NCBI GenBank assembly: GCA_020632415.1
Contig: JACKFO010000002.1
Location: 119,947-183,946, forward strand
Length of the DNA: 64,000 nucleotides
Source of the DNA: Candidatus Nomurabacteria bacterium
Lineage (GTDB): Bacteria; Patescibacteriota; Patescibacteriia; UBA1558; GWA2-36-10
Direction: 5' to 3'
The position numbers and the translations under genes are program-made. Within the stretch, counting starts at the first letter, position 1. Each line of letters opens with the position of its first letter. The notes beneath the pieces were generated by a model. It did no database searches. It was not told the DNA's origin and worked only from the letters and a program-made list of their open reading frames with translations. Positions 15,834 through 63,754 of this stretch are shown piece by piece.

Positions 15834-16106
15834 TTATTCAGTAATTGTTTTTTCAGAAGGGGAGTATTTTTTATTCTTGATTTTCCACTGATCAACATAT
15901 TGCCCTAAACCTTGCGCCTTGAGTTGGTTAGAACGTCTAGTGGATTGTTGAGACCATTCAACTAGAGAGCTAAAGTTAATTTTATAACGGCCCTTGACAA
16001 CGATGTATTTTAACTCTTCGTTTTTGATTGCCTGGCGAATAGTTTTGCTAGAAACGCCAAATAATTGGCCAGCTTGAGAAACTGAAACTCGAATAATATT
16101 TTCCAT
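15834..16106 (-). CDS. small excisionase-family (MerR-like HTH_17) DNA-binding protein
   Basis: LFGVSSKTIRQAIKNEELKYIVVKGRYKINFSSLVEW resembles excisionase-type HTH proteins (…LGVS..TIYR.I..G.L…..G.R.RI…L..WL). Confidence 0.6.
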   Translation of the reverse strand: MENIIRVSVSQAGQLFGVSSKTIRQAIKNEELKYIVVKGRYKINFSSLVEWSQQSTRRSNQLKAQGLGQYVDQWKIKNKKYSPSEKTITE

Positions 16107-16414
16107 AGTTTTTTTAATTATCTATTTAAGTATACACTATTCTATACTTTATTACAAAAATAAGAACTTATTTACTTCTTGATCAGCTCGAACAAACGTC
16201 TGTTGAAATACGTTGTTTGCGTAGACTTACTGTTTTTTCTTTGGGCAAATAAGCTGAATCGAAGAGCTGGGGACAGAATCATTATTTGCTTAAAATAATA
16301 GCTTATTTGTTTTCTTTTCTTGTTTTTTTATGCTATAATTTTCGTTATTAAAGAATAATAATCAAGCCTGGTTTTAGGCTTTTGGTATTTACAAATATAG
16401 AAAATAGTGTTATA

Positions 16415-16478
16415 ATTTAGGCTAAGATTAGATTAATTATTTCTATTTTTTATATTTTTAGCTAATATTAGCCTAAAT
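16415..16478. promoter_or_regulatory. inverted repeat containing the palindrome GCTAATATTAGC, upstream of the ECF sigma gene
   Basis: ATTTAGGCTAA (16415-16425) is the reverse complement of TTAGCCTAAAT (16468-16478). The palindrome GCTAATATTAGC sits at 16461-16472. A TGTTATAAT extended -10 lies at 16407-16415. Confidence 0.45.
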
Positions 16479-16527: not shown

Positions 16528-17082
16528 ATGAAAAGCTTAAAAAGCAATTTGAAAGAAAAAATAGCCTTTCTGAAGCTTAAAAGCGGAGATAGCGAAGCTT
16601 TCGGTTTTTTTTATGATCAATACCTTGGTCAGATCTATCGTTTTATTATGATGAAAGTTTCTGATCAGCAAGTTGCCGAAGATTTAACTCAAGATGTTTT
16701 CTTGAAAACCTGGCAACATTTAGTTGATCAAAAAAGCTTGAGTCATTTCCGGGCTTTCATTTTCCGAGTTGCTCGTAATGTCGTGATTGATCATTATCGT
16801 CAAAGTGGCAAACAAAACATTCCTTTAGAACACATTAGTGAAACTGTTGATGAAGCAGTTAACATTGATAAAAAGTTAGAGATTAAAGTAGAGGTCGAGC
16901 AATTGTTGCAGATTCTACAAAAACTCAAACCGGAGTATCAGGAAATTCTTGTTCTACGCTTTGTAGAAGAAATGTCATTTGATGAGATTGCTGAAATTCT
17001 CCAAAAAGATAAAAATAATGTTCGCGTCACTTTGCATCGAGCTTTAACTAAATTAAAACAATTAAGCGAAGAAAAGATTTAA
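16528..17082 (+). CDS. ECF-type RNA polymerase sigma factor (sigma-70 family, group 4)
   Basis: Region 2 reads DLTQDVFLKTWQHL...FRAFIFRVARNVVIDHYR. Region 4 reads ILVLRFVEEMSFDEIAEIL. Confidence 0.9.
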   Translation: MKSLKSNLKEKIAFLKLKSGDSEAFGFFYDQYLGQIYRFIMMKVSDQQVAEDLTQDVFLKTWQHLVDQKSLSHFRAFIFRVARNVVIDHYRQSGKQNIPLEHISETVDEAVNIDKKLEIKVEVEQLLQILQKLKPEYQEILVLRFVEEMSFDEIAEILQKDKNNVRVTLHRALTKLKQLSEEKI

Positions 17083-17094
17083 TAAATTAATCTT

Positions 17095-18474
17095 ATGAGT
17101 TTAGAAAAACAATTTGCCAAATTAAAGAATTTGGAAAAATTCCAAGCAAATCAAGATTGGCAAATGACAAGCAAATATGATTTGATGTCAGAGATTCATT
17201 CTCAAGCTAGATTGATGAAAGCTCAACAATTAAGTTCTGCTGAAAAGTTTGATCTTTTTGTGATGCGCTTTACTCGTCGTTTGATGCCTTCAGTAAGCAA
17301 AATGGTTGCTGGTTTATTGATTGTGGTGATGGGCTCTGGCGTTAGTTTTGCCGCACAGGCGTCTGTTCCAGGACAAGCTTTGTGGCCAGTTAAACGTTCG
17401 ATCGAAAAGGCTGAGTTAACCTTGGCTTTTAGCTCGGTTACTGAGACAGAAGTTCACATTAAGCATCTAAACAAAAGATTAGAAGAAATCAATAAAATTG
17501 TTGAAAAGTCTAAAGTTACTGATGAGCCGACTAGACTTGCTAAAAATGAAAAAGCAATTAAACAAGTAGTCCAACACTTAGAAAAAGAAGCTGTAGCTGT
17601 TGATCAAAATTTAAAAATAGTCAAAGAAGATACTAAGCCAATTGAAGTTGTTAATTTAGCTAAAAAAGTAACTGAAGTTGCCAAAGAAGCTAAAAAACAA
17701 GTCGGAGTTTTAGAAGGGCAAGTTGCTCAAACTGATCGCAGTGTCGTTTTAAAAGAAGCTTTAGACAATGTCAAAGTGATTAACGAAGAGGTTAATCGAA
17801 CTGCTGTAGATGTTGCAATTCAAGTTCATGAAGAGATAGTTGCTGCTAAAGTAGAAAAAGTTGCTAAAGAAATTTTAGAAAATCATTTTGATCAAGCTCA
17901 AACCGTGATTGATGATCAAGAAATAGAAGATGTTACTAAGGCTGTTGTTGAGTTAATCTTTGAGGATATCAATGAATTGAATGATGAAATTCAGGCTACT
18001 AAAGAAAAAACAGAGATTATTTCTGCAGAAAATATTGGTGAAGCAGTAACTAAGGCAAATAGTGTTGTTGCTGATCAAGAATTACCTGTAGATGGTGGTC
18101 CAGCAAAAGTAGAGGTAAAAGATATCAAAGAAATTAAAGAACAATCAGGTGAAGCACAGGCCACTTTAGAGCAGGCCAAAACTTTATTGGAAGAAGGATC
18201 TTTGAAGGATGCGGTGGCTAAAGTTGTAGAAACTAAAAAAATTCAGGAAAAAACTGCTACAGTCATTAAAAATATTGAACAAGCCGTTCAAGAAAAAGCA
18301 GTGTCAGACAAAGCCGAGGCTAGCGCCACATCAACTGTTCAGCAGATCAAACCGATAAATATCCAAATTAGTTCCACCACGATTGAAAAAGCAATGATTA
18401 ATGATGAAGATGCTTTGGTAGGAGAAGAAGAAAAGATTAAAGAAGAAGCGATTACTGATATTTTAAAACAATAA
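17095..18474 (+). CDS. putative anti-sigma factor (single TM, extracytoplasmic coiled-coil-rich domain)
   Basis: It is translationally coupled to the sigma gene. It has a short cytoplasmic N-terminus, one TM (MVAGLLIVVMGSGVSFAAQA), then a long Lys/Glu/Val-rich domain. Confidence 0.6.
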   Translation: MSLEKQFAKLKNLEKFQANQDWQMTSKYDLMSEIHSQARLMKAQQLSSAEKFDLFVMRFTRRLMPSVSKMVAGLLIVVMGSGVSFAAQASVPGQALWPVKRSIEKAELTLAFSSVTETEVHIKHLNKRLEEINKIVEKSKVTDEPTRLAKNEKAIKQVVQHLEKEAVAVDQNLKIVKEDTKPIEVVNLAKKVTEVAKEAKKQVGVLEGQVAQTDRSVVLKEALDNVKVINEEVNRTAVDVAIQVHEEIVAAKVEKVAKEILENHFDQAQTVIDDQEIEDVTKAVVELIFEDINELNDEIQATKEKTEIISAENIGEAVTKANSVVADQELPVDGGPAKVEVKDIKEIKEQSGEAQATLEQAKTLLEEGSLKDAVAKVVETKKIQEKTATVIKNIEQAVQEKAVSDKAEASATSTVQQIKPINIQISSTTIEKAMINDEDALVGEEEKIKEEAITDILKQ

Positions 18475-18480
18475 TTTAAA

Positions 18481-18830
18481 AATAAATCCCAAAGCGCGTA
18501 TTTAGTTTAGGTTGTGGATACATAGCTTTCGTTACCATGCACGGAAGGAAAGCTATAATCCCTAACTTATCGCTATATCGCGCGCGATTAGGGGTTATTG
18601 TTTTGTTCCTAGACAAAAATAATATTTACTTTCGGGGTCCGTACCCGAGCTTAATTGTTGCCTATAAGTTTAGTAGCCAGAAAGGTCGATGTGGCTAAAA
18701 ACTGCAGGAGCTAAGCATTATAGTTTTCCGCCAAAGGTGGATTAGTCTAAATGCATTTAGATGCTGACGATTTAGTTAAGAGTAAATTTTGTTTCCTAGA
18801 GAACATCTTATTAATTTAAAAAAAGAATAC
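18481..18830 (+). ncRNA. GC-enriched, highly structured ~300-nt leader or candidate small RNA upstream of the large surface-protein gene
   Basis: Several perfect hairpins are present. Example 1 is GGATacATAGCTTTC...GAAAGCTATaATCC. Example 2 is CCCTAA...ATCGC...GCGAT.TAGGG. Example 3 is TCGGG gtccgta CCCGA. Example 4 is TAGCCA...TGGCTA. A 14-nt palindrome CTAAATGCATTTAG lies at 18747-18760. Local GC is clearly above the flanks. Confidence 0.35.
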
Positions 18831-21800
18831 ATGAATTTAGTAAAGAAATTTTCAATCTTTGCTTTAATGATTGCTACAGTGTTCTCAATGTCCGGCGGCG
18901 TTTTATCCGTAAAAGCTGCTGGTAATTATGCTGCTGGTTCTTTACTTGCCCAATCTGGTGTAAGTGGAGCAGCTGTTTATTACATTGGCTCTGATGGCAT
19001 GAAATACGTTTTCCCAGATGTTAAAACTTATAACAGCTGGTACGAAAACTTTGACAATGTGGTTAGAGTATCTGTCGCCGAGTTAGATATGTACGCCGAT
19101 GGTGGTGCTGTCTCAGTTCGTCCAGGTACCAAATTAATCACTCACGAAAACACAGCAAAAATTTACGCTATTGAACCAGGTGGTGTAGCACGTTGGATTC
19201 CAACTGCTGAAGTTGCCGAAGCTTTATACGGCGCTAACTGGGGATCAAGAGTTATGGATGTAATTCCAGGCTTCTTCTCCTCAAGTTATACTGCTGGTTC
19301 TGATTTATCAAACACCTTACCAACTGGTACTATTGCCATGGAACAAGGTGGAAGTACTTATTATTACATTTCTAACGGCACCAAGAGACCATTTAGCTCT
19401 ATGGATGCTTTTGAAGCTAATAACTTCAATTTAGACAATGTTTTAGTAACATCTTTATCTTCATATAGTGCTGGTACATCCATCACTGGTGAAGAAATTG
19501 CTTTATCCGGCTATATGGCCGCTGAAGGTGGTAATGAAGTTGTTAGTGGAAATTTAACAGTGAGTTTAGCTGCTAATACTCCAGCTTCTACCACATTGGT
19601 AAAAGGACAGGCATTAGCTGATTTAGCTCACTTTAATTTTTCAGCATCAAATGCTGGTTCAGTTACAGTAAGAACATTAAAAGTTAAGAGAGTTGGCGTT
19701 TCTGAAGACGCAGACTTAACTTCTATTTATCTTTATGATGGATCAAATAGATTGACTGATAATGTTAGTGTTTCAAACAACTATGCAACATTTAATGATG
19801 CTAGTGGTTTATTCACTATTCCAGCTGGTACTACAAAAACTATTTCTGTTAAAGCAAACATTTATAGTTCAGCTAATGCTGGCTCAACAGTTGCTTTAGA
19901 AGTAGAAGCTGCTGGAGATGTAACTTCTAACTCAAGTTCAGTTGGTGGTTCATTCCCAGTTATGGGCAATACCCATACTATTGCTACTGCTACTTTAGCT
20001 GGCGTAGCTTTGGCTGGTACAACCTATCCAACAGCAAGTACTGTTGATGCTGGTGAAACAGAATACACAGTTTGGAAAAATAGTGTTAGTGTAACACAAA
20101 GATCTGCTAGTCTTGAATATTTGAGACTAAGAAATGTTGGTTCAATTGCTAACAACGATCTACAAAATTTAAAATTATTTGTAGACGGCGTACAAGCAGG
20201 TACATCACAGGCCACTTTGGATAGTGATGGCTATGTTACATTTGATTTAACTGGTTCCCCGGTAACTTTAACTACTGGCACTCGCGTAATCGAGGTCAGA
20301 GCTGATATTGTTGGCGGTTCTTCCAAGACATTCCAAATGTCTTTACGCTATGCTGTTGATGTAGTTGTAAAAGATACTCAATACAACGCTTACGTAACTG
20401 CTTCTGGTACTTTACCAGCCTCAGCTACAAGCGCTACTGTAAATTCTGGTAGTTTAACCGTTACCAAAATGACAGATTCTCCATCGGGCAATGTTCAAAA
20501 AGATGCTTCAGGTGTAACCTTGGCTTCTTATGAATTAAAGGCTTATGGTGAAAGTATTAAGATTGAACACTTACGTGTTACAGCCACTTCTACAAATGAC
20601 CAATCAATTAGTCAATTGAGAAATGGTGCTTTATTTGCTGACGGTGTACAAATTGGTTCTACGGCAGATATTCATATTGATGAAGCTGGCACTGATACAG
20701 TAACTGCAACTTATACTGATTACAACCTAGGTTCTTCCTTAATTGTAAATCCTGGTACCCCAGTTACTTTGGAAGTAAAGGCTGATATTTATGATAACGA
20801 TGGTACAAATAATATCACCGCAGGTGATTATTTGAAGGTAACATTGTCAACTTATACATCTGGTGCACAAAGAATGAGTTCATTAGGTTATATTGACGTA
20901 CCTACAAACTCAGTTGATGGCGGTACAGTTTCAGTAGTTACCGGTTCATTGAGTGTTGCTAAGAATACTTCTTATGGCAACCAGAACACAATTGATGATT
21001 TGTCAGCTTATAAGTTGGGATCATTTATTGTTTCTGCTACCGAAGGTGAAGATGTAAATATTAGTCAATTTACAGTTGGTGTTACTTATACAGATACCGT
21101 TTCTGATAGTGATACAGCTGCAACTACCTTGTCTGATATGTATTTGGTTTATGGTGATAATACTACAAATCCAAGAGGAACTGTTTCTGCTAGTAGCAAT
21201 AATTTCTCTGTAAATTATGTCATGCCAAATAACACTCAGATGCAGGTTGATGTTTATGCCAATGTAAACAATACTCCTGATGCTACAGATATAGTTTCGA
21301 CAACCTTGGCAGTTTCTGGTACAACAGCTGGTTCTGGTACCAATGCTGATGTTACAGCAGTATCTGGACAGACAATTACATTCCAAGATGGTTCAATCAC
21401 AGCCGCTGTTGATCCAACTACCGCGGTAACTGATATTGCTATTGCCGGTGGTTCTACAACTGCTGCTAAATTTAAATTAACAACTCAATATGCTCCTATT
21501 GTCTTGAAAGACTTTACCGTTAAAATGGTAACAGCTTCCAGTTCAAGAAGTGTTATGGGTGCTAAATTAGATTTAGATAACGATGGCATCGCTGATACTC
21601 CAAGAGTAAGCTTTGTTTATAATGCTGCGACTAATGCAAATTATGCTGCCTTCACAGGTTTGAATAACAACGTAGCGGCTAATACAAACAAAACTATCGG
21701 TGTTATTTTGGACTTGAATGACGTTATTGACAACGGCACATCTGGCGATGATGTAAAAGTAAACTTCTACAGTTACAAATACTCAATCGGTGGTGTAGAT

Positions 21801-22553
21801 ACAACAGCAACTCCTTCAAGTTTGAACGGTAATTCAATTTATGTACGTAACACTAAACCAACTGTTACCCAAGTAAGTACTGGTGGTACATTGACCAACG
21901 GTGCCGAAATGGATGTTTACAAGTTTACAGTAACAGCTGATCAAAATGCTAATGTTTCATTAAAACAAATGAAATATGCTGCTACTTTGACAGATGTTTC
22001 TACAACAGCTAACACATTGACATTGGGTAGTTGGAGATTCTTCCGTGGCTCTACAGATATCACTGATAGTGTATCTATAGAAAATGCTACAGGAACAGCT
22101 CCTGTAAGTTTGAAGTCTGGTGGAACAGCTTTTGCAGAAGGTGATACTACTGCAATCGTTAGATTCAGCACAGAAGAAGTTATCGAGGCTGGTGCTTCAG
22201 TAACTTATACTATCAAAGCTACTCCAAGTGGCTTTACCACTGCTTCTGACGATGATTATTTCACTATTCAAATGAGTGGTGATGCATCAGCTGCTACTGC
22301 TGGTAATGTTTACTTGCAAGACTCAGATGCAACGTCAAGTGAATATATCGCTGGCTTAGGTGCTGGTGATACCGATGATAGTGTACAAGCGGCCAACTTT
22401 ATCTGGTCAGACAATTCCAAGGTTTTGCATAATGCAACTTTGGCAGACACTACATCAGGCACTTCTGCTGCCTCAACTTCATCTGGAGATTGGACAAATG
22501 GTTATTTGATCAAGGATAACTTGCCAAGTAATTCAGTTCAATGGGTATACTAA
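18831..22553 (+). CDS. large secreted, signal-peptide-bearing Thr/Ser/Gly/Ala/Val/Asn-rich repeat protein; candidate S-layer or adhesin
   Basis: The signal peptide is MNLVKKFSIFALMIATVFSMSGGVLSVKAAG. Two N-terminal YYI(G/S)xxG.K..F...F..DNV repeats follow. After them come tandem divergent ~100-aa beta-rich modules recurring as ...L(Y/F)xDGV...V.F... The upstream ORF start at 18789 is TTG, so the ATG at 18831 is preferred. Confidence 0.75.
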   Translation: MNLVKKFSIFALMIATVFSMSGGVLSVKAAGNYAAGSLLAQSGVSGAAVYYIGSDGMKYVFPDVKTYNSWYENFDNVVRVSVAELDMYADGGAVSVRPGTKLITHENTAKIYAIEPGGVARWIPTAEVAEALYGANWGSRVMDVIPGFFSSSYTAGSDLSNTLPTGTIAMEQGGSTYYYISNGTKRPFSSMDAFEANNFNLDNVLVTSLSSYSAGTSITGEEIALSGYMAAEGGNEVVSGNLTVSLAANTPASTTLVKGQALADLAHFNFSASNAGSVTVRTLKVKRVGVSEDADLTSIYLYDGSNRLTDNVSVSNNYATFNDASGLFTIPAGTTKTISVKANIYSSANAGSTVALEVEAAGDVTSNSSSVGGSFPVMGNTHTIATATLAGVALAGTTYPTASTVDAGETEYTVWKNSVSVTQRSASLEYLRLRNVGSIANNDLQNLKLFVDGVQAGTSQATLDSDGYVTFDLTGSPVTLTTGTRVIEVRADIVGGSSKTFQMSLRYAVDVVVKDTQYNAYVTASGTLPASATSATVNSGSLTVTKMTDSPSGNVQKDASGVTLASYELKAYGESIKIEHLRVTATSTNDQSISQLRNGALFADGVQIGSTADIHIDEAGTDTVTATYTDYNLGSSLIVNPGTPVTLEVKADIYDNDGTNNITAGDYLKVTLSTYTSGAQRMSSLGYIDVPTNSVDGGTVSVVTGSLSVAKNTSYGNQNTIDDLSAYKLGSFIVSATEGEDVNISQFTVGVTYTDTVSDSDTAATTLSDMYLVYGDNTTNPRGTVSASSNNFSVNYVMPNNTQMQVDVYANVNNTPDATDIVSTTLAVSGTTAGSGTNADVTAVSGQTITFQDGSITAAVDPTTAVTDIAIAGGSTTAAKFKLTTQYAPIVLKDFTVKMVTASSSRSVMGAKLDLDNDGIADTPRVSFVYNAATNANYAAFTGLNNNVAANTNKTIGVILDLNDVIDNGTSGDDVKVNFYSYKYSIGGVDTTATPSSLNGNSIYVRNTKPTVTQVSTGGTLTNGAEMDVYKFTVTADQNANVSLKQMKYAATLTDVSTTANTLTLGSWRFFRGSTDITDSVSIENATGTAPVSLKSGGTAFAEGDTTAIVRFSTEEVIEAGASVTYTIKATPSGFTTASDDDYFTIQMSGDASAATAGNVYLQDSDATSSEYIAGLGAGDTDDSVQAANFIWSDNSKVLHNATLADTTSGTSAASTSSGDWTNGYLIKDNLPSNSVQWVY

Positions 22554-22627: not shown

Positions 22628-23839
22628 TTAAAACAACCTCAAGTATATCTCCTCGATTTTTTCTAAAGTTTGTGTTAAGCTGAAATTTTTTTCAATGTTT
22701 TCTTTATTTTTTTTAGCTAACTTAGTAGCCAAATTATCATCGGCGGCTAATGTTTTTATTGCTTTTAATAAAGACGGGGGATTAGCAGGGGTTGTTAATA
22801 AACCAGTTTCTTGATTAGTGATGATTTCCGGAATACCACCAACATTACTGGCAATAGTCGGCACGCCGGCTAAACCCGCTTCTAAAATAGTATAAGGCAA
22901 GCCTTCTTTGACTGACGGCAAAATAAAATAGTCAAAAGCTTTGAGATATTTCCAGTCATTATCTTCTGACTTGATGATTTTGATATACTCTTCAAGCTTA
23001 CTTTCTTGAATTTTGTTTTTGATATTTTCTTCTTCTGGACCATCGCCAATAAAAATAAATTGGTGATTTTTTAATAACCCAGATTTTTCCGCCAGAGGCG
23101 GATCAGCCTTTGGCTGATCTTCTTTTAACAATTTAATCGCTTCAATCAAATAAGTATGCCCTTTGGTCTTATAAAAACTAGCAATTGTCCCAAAATATTT
23201 TTTATCATACTCCAAGGCTAATTTTTCTCTGGCCTGTTCTCGGTTTAAAAAATCATATTCTGAAAAATTTAAGCCATTATGAATGGTGATCATTTTATTT
23301 GGGTTGCAGATTTTATTTTCAATAGCACTTTGACGATCAAAGTCAGAAACAGTAATAATTGCATTTTCAAGGCTAGTGGAAAATTTTTCAGAGATTTTAT
23401 AAACAGTTTTTTCAATTTTGGCCAGCGGCTCATTAAAAACAAAACCATGAGCAGTATAGACTGTTCTTAGGCGCATGTTTAGAGGATTGAGGTTATGTAG
23501 CTTAGCAGCGATTGCGCCCAATAGACCGGCTTTTGAGCTGTTTAGGTGGACTAGATTATAGTTTTCTTTGGCTAGTAATTTTTTGATCTCAAAAATAGCA
23601 TTAACTTCTTTTGTTGGCTCAATTTTACGGACAAGGTTTTTTAAAGGAATGGTTTTAACACCGATTTTCTTAGCTTGGGTTAAAAATCTTTGATTTTGTT
23701 CAGTTATTTCACCAAAAGCTAGATGAACTTCGTTATTTTTAGCAAAATATTGAGCTAACTCTAGCACATATTTTTGTGCGCCACCCCATTTTGTCTGGGT
23801 AACTAGGTAGAGGATTTTTTTATTTTTGAGGTTTTTCAT
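22628..23839 (-). CDS. glycosyltransferase family 4 (GT-B fold)
   Basis: The C-terminus FILPSVKEGLPYTILEAGLAGVPTIASNVGGIPEII..ETGLL is GT4/EX7E-like. Confidence 0.85.
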   Translation of the reverse strand: MKNLKNKKILYLVTQTKWGGAQKYVLELAQYFAKNNEVHLAFGEITEQNQRFLTQAKKIGVKTIPLKNLVRKIEPTKEVNAIFEIKKLLAKENYNLVHLNSSKAGLLGAIAAKLHNLNPLNMRLRTVYTAHGFVFNEPLAKIEKTVYKISEKFSTSLENAIITVSDFDRQSAIENKICNPNKMITIHNGLNFSEYDFLNREQAREKLALEYDKKYFGTIASFYKTKGHTYLIEAIKLLKEDQPKADPPLAEKSGLLKNHQFIFIGDGPEEENIKNKIQESKLEEYIKIIKSEDNDWKYLKAFDYFILPSVKEGLPYTILEAGLAGVPTIASNVGGIPEIITNQETGLLTTPANPPSLLKAIKTLAADDNLATKLAKKNKENIEKNFSLTQTLEKIEEIYLRLF

Positions 23840-23891
23840 AGGTTTTTGTCTAATATTAGCTAAAATTAAAGTTGCTATTTTGTCCTGATTT

Positions 23892-23900
23892 TGTTATAAT
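23892..23900 (+). promoter_or_regulatory. extended -10 promoter element (TGTTATAAT) for the plus-strand GT operon
   Basis: TGnTATAAT lies about 35 nt upstream of the ATG at 23935. The region is divergent to the minus-strand GT gene. Confidence 0.45.
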
Positions 23901-23934: not shown

Positions 23935-25080
23935 ATGCCTAAAATTCTTATTTTTTCCATTGCCTATCATCCTTTTATTGGCGGAGCAGAAATAGCGGTC
24001 AAAGAGGTTACTGATCGTTTACCTGATTTTGAGTATTATTTGATTACTAATAAATTTGATGCTAATTGGCTAGATGAAGAAAAAATTGGTAATATTAATG
24101 TTAGAAGAGTTGGAAATGGCAAAAAGATAGATAAATATTTTTATCCGTTTAGAGCTTTTCGTTATGCTTGGCGTTTGAATAAGCTAGTAAAATTTGATTT
24201 TGTTTGGAGCATCATGGCCTTTTATGCTGGGGCAACAGCTTTGTTTTTTAGGTATTTTAGCAAAATTCCGTATTTACTTACTTTGCAAAGTGGCGATAGT
24301 GATCAGTTTTTAAAGAAAAGAACTTGGTGGTGGAGTTTTTGGTACAAAAGAATTTATCGTCGTGCCAAATTAACACAGGTGATCAGCAAATACTTAGGAG
24401 AGCGATCTCGCAAAATGGGAAATAAAGGAGAAATTATTTTGATTCCTAATGGTGTTGATTTAAATTTGTTTCAAGCTAATTTGAGCATTGAAGAAAAAAT
24501 AGCCTTAAAAAGATCATTGGGTATTAGTGCTGATGATTTTGTTTTAATTTCCGCTTCACGTTTGGTTTTTAAAAATGCTATTGACGATCTAATTAAAGCT
24601 GTTAATTTTTTACTTTACAAGAGTGGCTTAAAAGTAAAATTAATTTTAATCGGTTCTGGTCCAGATGAACAGCCTTTAAAAAATCTAGCTCAACAACAAG
24701 GTGTAGCAGAAAATGTTATTTTTTTAGGACATAAACATTATTCTGAATTGCCAAGATATTTACAGTTGGCTGACGTATTTATTCGTCCTTCTTTGTCAGA
24801 GGGATTAGGCAGTGCTTTTTTGGAAAGCATGGCTGTCGGTACGCCGATCATTGGGACTGAGGTTGGTGGTATTCCAGATTTTTTAAAAAACGAAGAAACC
24901 GGTTTGTTTTGTGAGGTGAATAATCCAAGTTCTATTGCTTCTGCTGTTGAAAAATATGCCAAAAATCCAGAATTATATCAAAAGGTAAAAAATAATGGTC
25001 TAAAATTAGTTCCAGAAAAATATGATTGGGATTCCGTGGCTTTAAAAATGGCTAAATTATTTGAAAAAATGATTAATTAA
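23935..25080 (+). CDS. glycosyltransferase family 4
   Basis: FIRPSLSEGLGSAFLESMAVGTPIIGTEVGGIPDFLKNEETGLF. Confidence 0.85.
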   Translation: MPKILIFSIAYHPFIGGAEIAVKEVTDRLPDFEYYLITNKFDANWLDEEKIGNINVRRVGNGKKIDKYFYPFRAFRYAWRLNKLVKFDFVWSIMAFYAGATALFFRYFSKIPYLLTLQSGDSDQFLKKRTWWWSFWYKRIYRRAKLTQVISKYLGERSRKMGNKGEIILIPNGVDLNLFQANLSIEEKIALKRSLGISADDFVLISASRLVFKNAIDDLIKAVNFLLYKSGLKVKLILIGSGPDEQPLKNLAQQQGVAENVIFLGHKHYSELPRYLQLADVFIRPSLSEGLGSAFLESMAVGTPIIGTEVGGIPDFLKNEETGLFCEVNNPSSIASAVEKYAKNPELYQKVKNNGLKLVPEKYDWDSVALKMAKLFEKMIN

Positions 25081-42597: not shown

Positions 42598-43260
42598 ATG
42601 AGTGAACAGAAAGTAAAAATTTTATTTGTTGATGATGATAGTTTTTTGAGAAAGGTTTATGATTCAGAATTAACAGAAAATAATTATGATGTAGCTCTGG
42701 CTGTTGATGGTCAAGATGGTTTAGATAAGGCGCGTGATGTTGATCCTGATTTGATCATTTTGGATATGGTAATGCCCAAAAAAAATGGTTTTGAAGTTTT
42801 GACAGAATTGCAATCTGATCCAGAAACAGCTCATATTCCAGTGATTATTTTATCAAATTTGGGTCAGGCAGCCGATCGGCAAAAGGGTCTGGATCTTGGC
42901 GCGGTTGATTATTTGGTAAAAGATAGCACGACTCTAGGAGTAATTATGTCTAGAATTGATAATATTTTACATTCACATACTAGCAGTAAAGAAGTAAGGA
43001 AAAAGAGTCATGAGATGGCGATCAAAGAAGCCAGTAAAATTCCTGAACCAGAAAAAATAGACGAAGCAAAAACTTCTGCTAATATTTTGACTAATGTTGC
43101 AAAACAGTTAGTCAAAAAATCAGAAAGAAAATCTACGGATGATAGACAGATAGAAAGTAGTAGCGGTGGCGCTGGTTTCCAATTTTGTCCAGAATGTGGT
43201 TCAAAAATAAAGATAAATTATAAATTTTGTCCAAAGTGTGGGTATAAATTAGAAAAATAA
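42598..43260 (+). CDS. CheY-like response regulator fused to a C-terminal zinc ribbon
   Basis: The REC domain is ILFVDDDSFLRK...DLIILDMVMPKKNGFEVL...IPVIILSN. The C-terminus is FQFCPECGSKIKINYKFCPKCGYKL. Confidence 0.8.
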   Translation: MSEQKVKILFVDDDSFLRKVYDSELTENNYDVALAVDGQDGLDKARDVDPDLIILDMVMPKKNGFEVLTELQSDPETAHIPVIILSNLGQAADRQKGLDLGAVDYLVKDSTTLGVIMSRIDNILHSHTSSKEVRKKSHEMAIKEASKIPEPEKIDEAKTSANILTNVAKQLVKKSERKSTDDRQIESSSGGAGFQFCPECGSKIKINYKFCPKCGYKLEK

Positions 43261-59698: not shown

Positions 59699-59803
59699 AT
59701 GCGTGAATTGATTGTTCTATCAGCAGGGATCGTTTTTGCCGCCATTGCTTTGTTCATTGGCACTGGCTATGATTCTCTGCAGAGGCAGAAGCGATCTCAG
59801 TAA
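59699..59803 (+). CDS. candidate 34-aa hydrophobic small protein
   Basis: The translation is MRELIVLSAGIVFAAIALFIGTGYDSLQRQKRSQ. An SD GGAG lies 8 nt upstream and a terminator lies immediately downstream. Confidence 0.4.
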   Translation: MRELIVLSAGIVFAAIALFIGTGYDSLQRQKRSQ

Positions 59804-59810
59804 GATCTTT

Positions 59811-59844
59811 TCCCTCCCAACCCTTCTTGACGGAGGGTTTTTTA
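59811..59844 (+). terminator. rho-independent terminator
   Basis: TCCCTCC caacccttcttgac GGAGGG TTTTTT. Confidence 0.8.
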
Positions 59845-59878
59845 AATATGGCTAATATTAGCTAATATTTTATTTATA

Positions 59879-59905
59879 TTAGCACTCCTTGACTCTGAGT
59901 GCTAA
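59879..59905 (+). promoter_or_regulatory. CIRCE operator (HrcA binding site)
   Basis: TTAGCACTC-cttgactct-GAGTGCTAA is a perfect match to the CIRCE consensus with a 9-nt spacer. Confidence 0.9.
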
Positions 59906-59917
59906 ATGCTTTATAAT
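59889..59917 (+). promoter_or_regulatory. sigma70 promoter of the hrcA operon, with the -35 inside CIRCE
   Basis: TTGACT (59889-59894) -N17- TATAAT (59912-59917). Confidence 0.65.
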
Positions 59918-59940: not shown

Positions 59941-60591
59941 ATGGAAAAAAGGTCTGAACAATTATTAAAAGCAATCGTTGAGCTCTATATTGCAGATGCT
60001 CGACCAATTGGCTCGTCTGCTTTAGCTGATACCTTTGAGGTAAGTCCAGCTACTATTCGTAATGCTATGATGGCTTTAGAAACAGAAGGTTATATTTATC
60101 AGCCTCATACTTCGGCCGGTAGAATTCCTACTATTCAAGGTTATAAATATTATTTAGACAATTTACTATCTGTTACTGACTGTTCTGAAAAAGAAAAAAC
60201 AGAATTACAAACAGCCTATAATAAAGACGTTAGAGAATTAGCAAAATTATTAGTTGAAAAAACAAATTTAGCTAGCATTATTGCTTTTGCTCCTTCAGAT
60301 CTTTACTTTACCGGCTTGTTTAATTTATTTTCTCAGCCAGAGTTTGAAGATTACAAAATGGTTTTATCAATGAGTCAAGTTGTGGATAGTTTAGAAAAGG
60401 CCATTAATAATATTTATCATAAAATTGATAAGCCTCAGGTATTGTTAGGTGAAGACAATCCATTTTCTGCTGACTGTTCAGTGATTATTGCGCCCTTAGC
60501 TCATGATAACAAGCAACTATTAGCAATTTTAGGGCCAATTAGAATGGATTATAATAAAATTTTAGGTTTATTTGAAGCAATCGTAAAATAA
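59941..60591 (+). CDS. hrcA: heat-inducible transcription repressor HrcA (short form)
   Basis: LLKAIVELYIADARPIGSSALADTFEVSPATIRNAMMALETEGYIYQPHTSAGRIPTIQGYKYY is the HrcA winged-HTH N-terminus. It is only about 216 aa long. The ATG at 59941 is preferred over the TTG at 59935. Confidence 0.85.
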   Translation: MEKRSEQLLKAIVELYIADARPIGSSALADTFEVSPATIRNAMMALETEGYIYQPHTSAGRIPTIQGYKYYLDNLLSVTDCSEKEKTELQTAYNKDVRELAKLLVEKTNLASIIAFAPSDLYFTGLFNLFSQPEFEDYKMVLSMSQVVDSLEKAINNIYHKIDKPQVLLGEDNPFSADCSVIIAPLAHDNKQLLAILGPIRMDYNKILGLFEAIVK

Positions 60592-60597
60592 AACAAC

Positions 60598-61086
60598 ATG
60601 TCAGAAAAAAAAGAATCAAATAAAAAGCAAACTAAGCTCAGTCGAGAAGAATTAGAGATTCAAGTCGCCGAAAATTTAGCTGGTTGGCAAAAAGCCTTAG
60701 CTGATTATCAAAATTTACAAAGAGAAAATGGACAGAAGATTAGCAATTTGAGTAATCTATTAACTAATAATTTAGTTTTAGAATTATTGCCAATCTTTGA
60801 CAATTATCAAACAGCGATTAATCATATACCGGAAGCTGAAAAAACAAGTTCTTGGGCTGTTGGTTTAGAGCATATTTTGAAAATGTGGGAAACCTTTTTA
60901 GCAGATCATAATGTCACTCGCATCAAGACTATTGGCGAAGAATTTAATCCTCACATTCATGAAGCTTTAGATCAAGTCAGCGAAGAAGATAAGGCGGATC
61001 AAGAAATCGTTGAAGAAAAACAAGCCGGTTTTATGCTTAATGATGATGTTATCAGACCTGCAAAAGTAATTATAAATAATAAATAA
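60598..61086 (+). CDS. grpE: nucleotide exchange factor GrpE
   Basis: It is 162 aa, in the position between hrcA and dnaK, with a GrpE-like C-terminus ...GEEFNPHIHEAL... Confidence 0.85.
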   Translation: MSEKKESNKKQTKLSREELEIQVAENLAGWQKALADYQNLQRENGQKISNLSNLLTNNLVLELLPIFDNYQTAINHIPEAEKTSSWAVGLEHILKMWETFLADHNVTRIKTIGEEFNPHIHEALDQVSEEDKADQEIVEEKQAGFMLNDDVIRPAKVIINNK

Positions 61087-61101
61087 AGAAAGGAGAATAT
61101 T

Positions 61102-61491
61102 ATGTCATTAATACCATGGAGTCCATTTTTGGACACTTTTGAAAGTTTGGAAAATACAAATTTTCTACCAGCCATCGATGTCTATGAAGATCATGATCAG
61201 GTGGTAGTGGAGGCTAGTTTAGCCGGTATTAGTCCAGAAGATGTAAACATCTCAGTGAAAGACGATGTTTTTACACTAGAAGGAACACGTCGAGAAACTT
61301 CCGAAATTGATGAGAAAAATTATTATCGTAAAGAAGTGCGTACTGGTTCATTTCATCGTTCAGTAATCTTGCCAGATTCTGTTCAAGCTGACAAAGCAGA
61401 AGCTCATTTTGAAAACGGATTATTAAAAGTAAGATTACCAAAAGAGACTCAAGAAAAATCAAAAAATATTGAGATTAAAATTAAAAAATAA
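61102..61491 (+). CDS. Hsp20/alpha-crystallin family small heat-shock protein
   Basis: The alpha-crystallin domain is ...AIDVYEDHDQVVVEASLAGISPEDVNISVKDDVFTLEGTR...GSFHRSVILP...ENGLLKVRLPK. A strong SD AGGAG is present. Confidence 0.85.
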   Translation: MSLIPWSPFLDTFESLENTNFLPAIDVYEDHDQVVVEASLAGISPEDVNISVKDDVFTLEGTRRETSEIDEKNYYRKEVRTGSFHRSVILPDSVQADKAEAHFENGLLKVRLPKETQEKSKNIEIKIKK

Positions 61492-61823
61492 TGTTAAATA
61501 CAAATCATCCCTTAAGTCTGAAGTTGATCAAATCTTGTCCGATTTGTTCAAATGTTTATGAGCAAACCAAAATTCAAATTTTAGAGGAAAGTGAATACGG
61601 AATTTTGACTTATGTGACTTGTCAAAATTGTGGAGCTAACTTACTCACAAAAATTTCAACTCTCGCTCAAGGTTTAGTTGGACAAGCAATTTTAACCGAT
61701 TTAAAAGCTAGTGAAGTAATGGATTTTGCCGTTGGCAATGATCTTGAAGCGGATCAAGTTTTAAAGATGCAGGAGATGATTCATCAGAATCAATTAATTA
61801 ATAATTTTAGAGAAATAATTTAA
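61491..61823 (+). CDS. hypothetical zinc-ribbon protein embedded in the heat-shock operon
   Basis: It is 110 aa with CPICSN...CQNCGAN. It overlaps hsp20 as TAATG. Confidence 0.5.
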
Positions 61824-61834
61824 TCAAAAAAGAT

Positions 61835-63754
61835 ATGGGAAAAATATTAGGAATCGATTTGGGTACTACTAATTCCGCTTTCGCCATTATTGAAGGAGGC
61901 CAACCAAAAATCTTGGAAAACAAAGAAGGCGCTCGTACGACCCCTTCGATGGTTGCTATCTCCAAAAATGGTGAGCGTTTAGTAGGTTTGCCGGCAAAAC
62001 GTCAGGCAGTAACCAATCCAGAAAATACAATTTTTTCAGTCAAGCGTTTGATTGGAAGAAAATTTGAAGATGCTGAGGTATCAAAAGACATTGAAACAAT
62101 GCCTTACAAGATTATTAAATCAGGCGTTGGCGTCAAAGTCGTGATGAACGGTAAAGAGCATAGTCCACAAGAAGTTTCAGCAATGATTTTACAAAAAATT
62201 AAGGCTGACGCCGAAGAGCGTTTAGGTGAGTCAGTAACTGAAGCGGTTATTACTGTGCCAGCTTATTTTGATGACTCACAACGTCAGGCTACTAAAGATG
62301 CTGGTAAAATCGCTGGTTTAGAAGTAAAGCGTATTATTAATGAGCCAACAGCCGCAGCTTTGGCTTACGGATTTGATAAAAAGAAAGATCAACAAGTGGT
62401 AGTTTATGACTTGGGCGGTGGTACTTTTGATGTTTCTATTTTAGACGTTTCAGCTGATACCGTAGAAGTGAAATCCACCAATGGTGATACTCATCTTGGC
62501 GGTGATGATTTTGATCAAGTTATTATCAATTGGATTTTAAGTGAGTACAAAAGACAAGAAGGCATTGATTTATCCAAAGATAATTTAGCCTTACAAAGAT
62601 TAAAAGAGTCAGCTGAAAAAGCCAAGATTGAACTTTCTTCATCAATGGAGACTGAAATTAATCAGCCATTTATTACTACCGATGAATCTGGTCCAAAACA
62701 TTTGGTGATGAAAATTACTCGTGCTCAATTAGAAGATTTAGTTGGTGATTTGGTTACTAGAACTTTAGAGCCATGCAAAAAAGCGCTGGCTGATGCTAAA
62801 TTAGAAGTCAAAGATATCGAAGAGGTTGTTATGGTTGGTGGTATGACTCGTATGCCACTTGTCCAAAAGAAAGTAGAAGAATTTTTTGGTAAAAAACCAA
62901 ATGTTTCTGTCAATCCTGACGAAGTTGTGGCTTTAGGCGCGGCTGTACAAGCTGGAGTTTTGCAAGGTGATGTCAAAGATGTCTTGTTACTTGATGTTAC
63001 TCCGCTTACTTTAGGTATTGAAACCATGGGTGGTGTTCGTACGCCGTTGATTGATCGCAATACGACTATTCCTGCCTCCAAATCACAGATTTTCTCCACT
63101 GCTGCTGATAATCAGCCTAGTGTCGAGATTCATGTCTTGCAAGGTGAACGTGAAATGGCTGCTGATAACAAAACTTTAGGTAGGTTTACTTTGTCTGGTA
63201 TTCCACCAGCACCACGCGGTGTGCCACAAATTGAAGTTAGTTTTGATATCGATGCCAATGGTATTTTGCATGTCAAAGCTGTAGACAAGGGAACCGGCAC
63301 TGAACAAAAAATTACCATTCAGTCATCTTCTGGCTTATCTGATGAGGAAATTAAAAATATGCAAAAAGATGCTGAGATTCATGCCGATGAAGATAAGAAA
63401 AAGAAAGAAGCAGTAGAAACTCGTAACGCTGCTGACAATATTGTTTTCCAAACTGAAAAATTCATCAAAGATAATGGTGATAAATTCAAAGCAGAAGATA
63501 AAAAAGAAATGGAAGAAAAAACCGAAGCTCTGAAAAAAGTCAAAGATGGCGAAGATTTAGAAGTTATTAAAACTGCTACCAAGGACTTGGAAGAAGTAGT
63601 GCAAAAAGTTGGCGCTGCTATGTACCAGCAACAAGCTACTGATCAGCAACAAGCTGCTGGTAGTTCTGGTCCAGATGCTGCAGCTGAAGGCGAGAAAAAA
63701 GAAGATGCCTCTGAAGGTGACTTCGAAGACGTCAAAGCAGAAGAAAATAAATAA
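61835..63754 (+). CDS. dnaK: molecular chaperone DnaK (Hsp70)
   Basis: [18 protein letters not shown]...[12 protein letters not shown]...[11 protein letters not shown]. Confidence 0.97.

Follow-up and report, generated by a model that had tools for sequence, protein, structure and literature searches.

A palindromic element common to the promoter regions of an ECF sigma operon, divergent glycosyltransferase genes and hrcA in a lineage of Parcubacteria

Parcubacteria belong to the Candidate Phyla Radiation (CPR) and are not culturable, and to our knowledge almost nothing has been established about the regulation of their genes. The DNA analyzed here, hereafter the window, is a 64-kb stretch of a source genome of approximately 842 kb, in which one short palindromic word lies in front of an ECF sigma factor gene, between two divergent glycosyltransferase genes and upstream of hrcA. 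The locus therefore raises the question of what a single element may be doing at the promoters of such different genes and, if a protein recognizes it, which protein that would be.

An 18-bp dyad at three promoter regions

The element was first noticed as an 11-mer said to occur at three places. CTAATATTAGC is indeed found at 16462-16472, 23850-23860 and 59852-59862, the last of these having been placed 10 positions too low, at 59842-59852, in the initial annotation. The full 12-mer palindrome GCTAATATTAGC occupies 16461-16472 and 59851-59862, as had been proposed, and its variant at the second site reads TCTAATATTAGC; the tandem GCTAATATT described after the third site is likewise present, at 59861-59869. 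All three sites are intergenic, and the earlier impression that the 11-mer avoids coding DNA was borne out by a count of zero coding copies in the window. Pfam assignments agree with the gene contexts named at the outset, namely an ECF sigma factor, divergent glycosyltransferases, and hrcA with CIRCE.

The G+C content of the window is 34% overall and 31% in the spacers, and the claim that three copies exceed chance expectation in such DNA was upheld, as dinucleotide shuffles yielded 0.01 expected copies of the 11-mer against the three observed. The common word is in fact longer, a 14-mer, CTAATATTAGCTAA, with three copies in the window, that of site 1 being on the minus strand. The reader's freedom to pick any word was corrected for by a look-anywhere simulation, with a first-order Markov model of 3.7 kb of intergenic DNA at 31% G+C: in none of 1000 runs did a 14-mer containing three or more G/C reach three copies. 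Just nine 14-mers have at least three copies in the window, and the others are mostly A/T-only words of low complexity. The sequences that flank the three copies are unrelated to one another.

An alignment of 23 instances defined the full element as an 18-bp dyad, TTRGCTAA-NN-TTAGCYAA. The GCTAA and TTAGC blocks are near-invariant in the 23 sites, the outer TTR and YAA are symmetric, and the central NN is free, being TA, AG, TC, TT, GA or AA. The same 18-mer can be parsed as a pair of pseudo-palindromes of 8 bp each, TTRGCYAA, spaced from centre to centre by 10 bp, or one helix turn. Because of these two parses, an inverted dimer, a dimer of dimers and a tandem pair all fit the sequence.

At the sigma gene the element is present twice. 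The main copy, O2, lies at 16458..16475 (TTAGCTAATATTAGCCTA, built around the 12-mer core; 25.4 bits with the position weight matrix), and a weaker copy, O1, at 16418..16435 (TAGGCTAAGATTAGATTA; 17.6 bits), 40 bp away from centre to centre. Two promoters on the plus strand accompany them. The sigma-70-type promoter P2 (16388..16416; TTTACA-17-TATAAT, 11/12 matches) is kept in orthologs, and its predicted transcription start is overlapped by O1. The second, P3 (16495..16523; TGTAAT-N16-CGTCTTA), is a classical ECF-type promoter that is presumably autoregulated by the sigma factor. O2 ends 19 nt before the ECF -35, on its upstream side. Since P3 ends 7 nt before the ATG, with no Shine-Dalgarno sequence, a leaderless sigma mRNA is probable, and the centre of O2 falls at about -61.5 from the ATG as the presumed start of this transcript. 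The operon that follows (16528..18474, plus strand) encodes the ECF sigma factor (16528-17082), followed by a putative anti-sigma factor with DUF5667 (17095-18474).

Further features surround this operon. Upstream of P2 lies a third conserved promoter-like element, the extended -10 TGCTATAAT (16331-16339), and about 25 nt after it comes a terminator-like hairpin (16364-16381) with a T run, the whole spanning 16331-16385; the hairpin is not clearly kept in relatives, and the arrangement could represent a tiny transcript or an attenuator. Downstream, a protein of about 1250 aa (18789-22553) with no Pfam domain always follows sigma and DUF5667 in relatives (loci L002, L005, L042, L044 and L045), and is probably the main output or a partner of the ECF system.

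The second element (23846..23863; TTGTCTAATATTAGCTAA; 24.2 bits) lies between divergent GT4 genes assigned by Pfam, at 22628-23839 on the minus strand and 23935-25080 on the plus strand, which stand at the head of a long glycan cluster. Its end is separated by 8 nt from the downstream -35 of the plus-strand operon promoter (23872..23900; TTGCTA-17-TATAAT with a TG extension), and its start lies 7 nt beyond the ATG of the minus-strand gene.

The third element (59848..59865; ATGGCTAATATTAGCTAA; 25.4 bits) runs into the tandem GCTAATATT, which amounts to a partial third unit. It ends 13 nt upstream of CIRCE (TTAGCACTC-N9-GAGTGCTAA, 59879-59905), and its centre is at about -67.5 from the predicted start. 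CIRCE is interleaved with the hrcA promoter (TTGACT at 59889-59894 and TATAAT at 59912-59917, plus strand; 59879..59917 as a whole), and the -35 falls within the CIRCE spacer in all relatives. The operon at 59941..63754 on the plus strand has the order hrcA (59941-60591), grpE, hsp20, a gene for a 110-aa protein, and dnaK, with dnaJ right after it, just past the window end.

Several properties of this region deserve mention in their own right. With 216 aa, HrcA aligns to the 338-position HrcA model in two separate segments, and part of the usual protein is missing. The hsp20 gene and that of the conserved 110-aa CxxC...CxxC protein, which has a weak Lar-like zinc-ribbon match, are inserted between grpE and dnaK (61102-61823), and likewise in the related locus L017. 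Between the MacB/FtsX genes and the third element, a 34-aa hydrophobic ORF is followed by a strong intrinsic terminator (59699-59839), and on the Logan contig L052 this ORF was called a gene. In L017 and L041, the gene that diverges from hrcA had no Pfam match, and its translation in L017 is membrane-protein-like.

Conservation and turnover in related genomes

The comparison set comprised 15 loci from reference genomes, retrieved with the sigma protein, and 25 from metagenomes, retrieved with HrcA, together with more loci found through homologues of two further proteins, the minus-strand glycosyltransferase and the HTH_17 protein encoded beside the sigma gene. Across species with protein identities of only 45-91%, the element still stands before each of the three gene sets.

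The sigma gene shows the most consistent association. The element was found in 11 of 12 orthologous or paralogous sigma loci (L002-L009, L042 and L045 among them) and is absent in L044. The proteins are 45-77% identical, and the upstream DNA has diverged outside three blocks, TTTT-R-GCTAA-NN-TTAGC, TGTAAYATT and CGTCT, which are invariant in eight aligned upstream regions. TGTAAY, CGTCT and the 16-nt and 7-nt spacings do not change in the orthologs, CGTC(T) ending 7 nt before the ATG. The gap from the element to TGTAAY is 18-20 nt in nine loci and 43-44 nt in L009 and L042. The second copy is also a recurrent feature: L002 has the O1-O2 layout of the window, L003 and L004 carry a second copy inside the P2 spacer, 72 bp from O2, and operator-like copies overlap the P2 core in four species in all. 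In addition, the metagenome bin CAIRBL01 contains three sigma paralogues (L002, L006 and L008), 63-77% identical to the window protein, each preceded by the palindrome and an ECF promoter.

At the glycosyltransferase locus the element was found in three of six species, those of the window, of L003/L048 and of L049 (the genome of L005), with the 8-nt gap in all of them. In L003 the copy follows immediately after the ATG of the orthologous minus-strand gene, matching the window layout. The plus-strand promoter is kept in all orthologs, even those that lack the element; thus L004, L050 and L051 retain it, together with an unusual conserved -10 region, and an element module of about 22 bp is cleanly missing. 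In L050 a YafQ/HigB-like toxin-antitoxin pair (1879-2383) is inserted between the divergent genes.

Among the hrcA loci, the element stands before CIRCE in L017, L018 and L041, those of the closest relatives (HrcA identity 78-91%), and also in L028, L030, L039 and, weakly, L025 (64-69%). The gap between the two is 13-14 nt in seven of eight loci; in L018 it is 35 nt, that is, 21 nt or two turns longer. About a dozen further hrcA loci have CIRCE and the promoter and no element.

Enrichment of the motif in intergenic over coding DNA, which the initial annotation had proposed to check, was seen in this larger set. Allowing at most one mismatch to GCTAA-NN-TTAGC over 428 kb of the window and its relatives, we counted 24 matches in the intergenic part (34 kb) and another 24 in the coding part (394 kb), an enrichment that is partly ascertained because the loci were chosen via sigma and hrcA. 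The window itself and the glycosyltransferase site of L003 are unaffected by this ascertainment; the sigma gene by which L003 was retrieved is 9.5 kb from that site. The intergenic matches in this count belong to the three gene sets except a weak one (L030:20467), and with the position weight matrix each intergenic match above 17 bits belongs to one of them. The comparable in-gene matches were just two, one inside ruvX (L005:5807-5824) and one at the 3' end of a PilM-like gene (L030:4063-4080), about 230 nt upstream of a pilin gene. Both are probably due to chance, and the pilus-linked one might be functional.

A second species most likely carries the element at the sigma gene, the glycosyltransferase locus and hrcA. 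L003, which has the sigma and glycosyltransferase sites, is 99.98% identical to L048, and an exact record of the L048 glycosyltransferase protein (P0126) also exists for the 428-kb contig to which L017, with its hrcA site, belongs. The distribution as a whole shows that the sigma gene is the core target, and that the glycan and chaperone sites are lineage-variable, having been gained or lost.

The nature of the element

Dyad symmetry with conserved half-sites and a free spacer, location at promoters and a phylogenetic footprint are the general marks of an operator, and the element displays all of them. On this sequence evidence, we consider it probable that the element is the operator of one sequence-specific transcription factor in this Parcubacteria lineage. 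According to the initial annotation, the copies would be one shared operator through which a dimeric regulator connects envelope, glycan and heat-shock functions. The shared operator is supported by the conservation of the element, its invariant half-sites, the fixed spacing, the intergenic enrichment, the lack of RNA covariation and the dissimilar flanks. As for the dimer, the dyad symmetry agrees with it, and a tetramer or a tandem arrangement is equally compatible; the link to glycan and heat-shock genes holds in part of the clade.

The element might instead be an auxiliary or variant HrcA site, through which HrcA would control the sigma and glycan genes as well. The TTAGC and GCTAA of the element are common to the outer ends of the CIRCE arms, the element stands at a fixed 13-14 nt from CIRCE at hrcA, and the HrcA of this genome is unusually short, all of which would favor this reading. 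Read by these outer bases, however, the element would be TTAGC-N8-GCTAA and CIRCE TTAGC-N17-GCTAA, an arm spacing shorter by 9 bp that one dimer geometry cannot accommodate along with the other. The invariant bases of the element are moreover the inner, everted GCTAA-NN-TTAGC, and the outer ones differ between sites, most sigma sites having TTGGC...GCCAA; nor does the element contain the CACTC/GAGTG core of CIRCE. Many hrcA loci also have CIRCE without the element, and the sigma loci have the element without CIRCE. Taken together, these differences make an HrcA site very improbable. A core promoter or UP-type element for some sigma factor (ECF, sigma-54 or other) seems even less probable. The distances from the element to the -35 elements are fairly fixed, and the element contains hexamers resembling a -35 (TTGGCT) and a -10 (TAATAT), but it has dyad symmetry where promoters are directional, no conserved partner hexamer was found 16-18 nt from it, and complete sigma-70 promoters lie downstream of it at the glycosyltransferase and hrcA loci. 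The ECF promoter is a separate block, TGTAAY-N16-CGTCT, which is absent from the glycosyltransferase and hrcA sites and was found nowhere else in the window or its relatives; because this block is confined to the sigma gene, the palindrome is not the ECF promoter. Sigma-54 promoters have an invariant GG and GC exactly one turn apart (TGGCAC-N5-TTGC). In the element the spacing of GG and GC is one base short and the GG is missing at the hrcA and glycosyltransferase sites, and a sigma-54 promoter was therefore rejected.

The least probable of the readings, and one to which we give almost no weight, is that the palindrome works as an RNA hairpin, belongs to a family of small mobile or repeated elements, or arose by chance from the composition of AT-rich spacers. 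A hairpin of 5-7 bp can be formed from it, and both the window as a whole and its spacers are poor in G+C. However, no covariation was seen in the stem (covariation term 0, with invariant pairs), and the sole consensus structure is the hairpin inherent in the palindrome; Rfam searches at gathering and at permissive thresholds gave no match, and no tRNA was found either. Site 3 is probably outside any transcript, since it is placed after a terminator and before a promoter. Chance is excluded by the shuffles and Markov simulations described above, and the orthologous placement across species also speaks against an accident. The unrelated sequences around the three copies exclude a mobile or interspersed repeat of the REP or MITE type; in addition, the copies are confined to three specific promoter regions.

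Mode of action and candidate regulators

That a factor bound at the element acts as a repressor is a direction we infer from the layout, and we put it at about even, with a slight lean in its favor. The strongest hint is that copies of the element overlap the P2 core. Furthermore, the core promoters of the glycosyltransferase (10/12) and hrcA (11/12) genes are near consensus and so do not look activator-dependent. The placing of the glycosyltransferase site within the leader of the minus-strand gene points the same way, as does the constant gap of 13-14 nt to CIRCE at hrcA, which suggests cooperation with HrcA. Relative to the starts, however, the site centres are at -52.5 (plus-strand glycosyltransferase), -61.5 (P3) and -67.5 (hrcA), and at -86 in two species; all are upstream of the -35 and share no helical phase, a pattern expected neither of a simple steric repressor nor of an activator with one class I geometry. 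The factor may instead activate, or play a dual role.

The protein would bind the two units on one helix face, whether as a single dimer, as two dimers joined or as a tandem pair. At the sigma gene, with O1 on the P2 start or spacer and O2 40 or 72 bp downstream, repression would be cooperative or looped, and with P2 silenced the sigma gene would depend on its own ECF promoter. On the minus-strand glycosyltransferase gene the factor would sit in the initially transcribed region, and at hrcA it could act together with HrcA. Stress would then release the factor and turn on the sigma factor, the chaperones and the envelope glycan genes together.

Which protein might this be? The search for regulators in the target operons and the 64-kb window returned just four candidates: an HTH_17 protein, the ECF sigma factor, HrcA, and a REC protein with a C-terminal zinc ribbon (42598-43260), which is encoded in an MCP-CheW-CheA cluster adjoining type IV pilus genes. 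Besides the sigma factor and HrcA, the HTH_17 protein (90 aa; 15834-16106, minus strand) is the sole classical DNA-binding protein of the window. It is the divergent neighbour of the sigma gene, and this arrangement recurs in eight loci (window, L003, L004, L005, L009, L042, L044 and L045), in which the module of HTH_17, sigma, DUF5667 and the protein of about 1250 aa is conserved; the protein itself is 63-86% identical across the clade. This small excisionase- or BldC-like protein could bind as a pair, or as a head-to-tail oligomer on the 10-bp-phased units. BldC, a small MerR-like wHTH protein that binds cooperatively to 9-bp repeats of AT-rich sequence plus C, provides a precedent for a small wHTH protein on phased repeats (PMC5859096). 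Here, too, a gene for a wHTH-only protein adjoins the main site, and the element consists of phased AT-rich units, each with a G-C step. However, the BldC sites are 9-bp direct repeats, AATTXXXX(C) (PMC5859096), whereas the element has a 10-bp period, palindromic units and an overall dyad. The gene is adjacent in eight loci but uncoupled from the element in three genomes: L002 and L007 have the element and no HTH_17 gene beside sigma, and L044 has an HTH_17 protein with an identical recognition helix and no element. Moreover, the HTH_17 promoter (TTGTAA-17-TATACT) holds a different conserved palindrome, AAGTATAGA-N4-TCTATACTT (16128-16149), which is confined to this promoter among all the sequence compared and would be a more natural target. 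We therefore regard HTH_17 as an unlikely binder of the element, given this uncoupling and its own palindrome, and from the sequence it is probably an autoregulated BldC-like factor. Its nearest solved structure is a phage excisionase, with weak significance. The regulator is probably encoded elsewhere in the genome.

Although the motif is new, the arrangement has known counterparts. CtsR and HrcA exert dual control, as co-repressors, over the dnaK and groESL operons of Staphylococcus aureus, as do HspR and HrcA over the hrcA and groES promoters of Helicobacter pylori. As in those systems, CIRCE and the core promoter of hrcA-grpE-dnaK are preceded, at a short and constant distance, by another operator of unrelated sequence, and the second regulator would also govern other stress genes. 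The sequence of the element is unlike both the CtsR box (GGTCAAA repeats) and the HspR HAIR box (CTTGAGT-N7-ACTCAAG), and the other targets here are an ECF sigma operon and glycosyltransferases rather than clp genes; we know of neither CtsR nor HspR from Parcubacteria. The doubled sites at the sigma gene recall lac, gal and deo, in which one operator lies on the core promoter and an auxiliary operator a few helical turns away: O1 is on the P2 start or spacer and the stronger copy lies downstream, by 40 bp in the window and L002 or by 72 bp in L003 and L004, both distances being close to whole helical turns. The present case differs in that another promoter, dependent on the ECF factor, is present as well, and the stronger copy is placed with respect to it too. 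P3 itself is of the same kind as the autoregulated promoters of the SigW/SigX/SigM type in Bacillus (TGAAAC/TGTAAC-N16-17-CGTx) and likewise lies directly upstream of the sigma gene. Unlike in Bacillus, the palindrome forms a separate block 18-20 nt farther upstream, and is also found at promoters without ECF elements.

Literature searches for the element sequence and for Patescibacteria regulons returned nothing relevant, and the motif and its regulon appear to be undescribed. A palindromic operator common to several stress promoters is a familiar category, however, so that this is a new motif of an ordinary kind. A more far-reaching proposal, which we hold tentatively and find on balance doubtful, is that the element marks a multi-operon stress regulon of Parcubacteria, in which one regulator stands above the ECF sigma factor and coordinates the HrcA-controlled chaperones with cell-surface glycosylation. 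This regulator would possibly belong to a family not yet recognised as DNA-binding, or be the highly conserved BldC-like HTH_17 protein.

To conclude, our work describes an 18-bp element that provides a testable handle on a stress circuit of Parcubacteria, and the 18-mer can be used both as a capture bait and as a probe in regulon searches. The element would add a second layer of control to that exerted by HrcA through CIRCE, and its distribution shows turnover of the regulon between lineages. If the proposed regulon is real, it would be the first multi-operon circuit reconstructed for uncultivated, genome-reduced CPR bacteria beyond those of HrcA and LexA.
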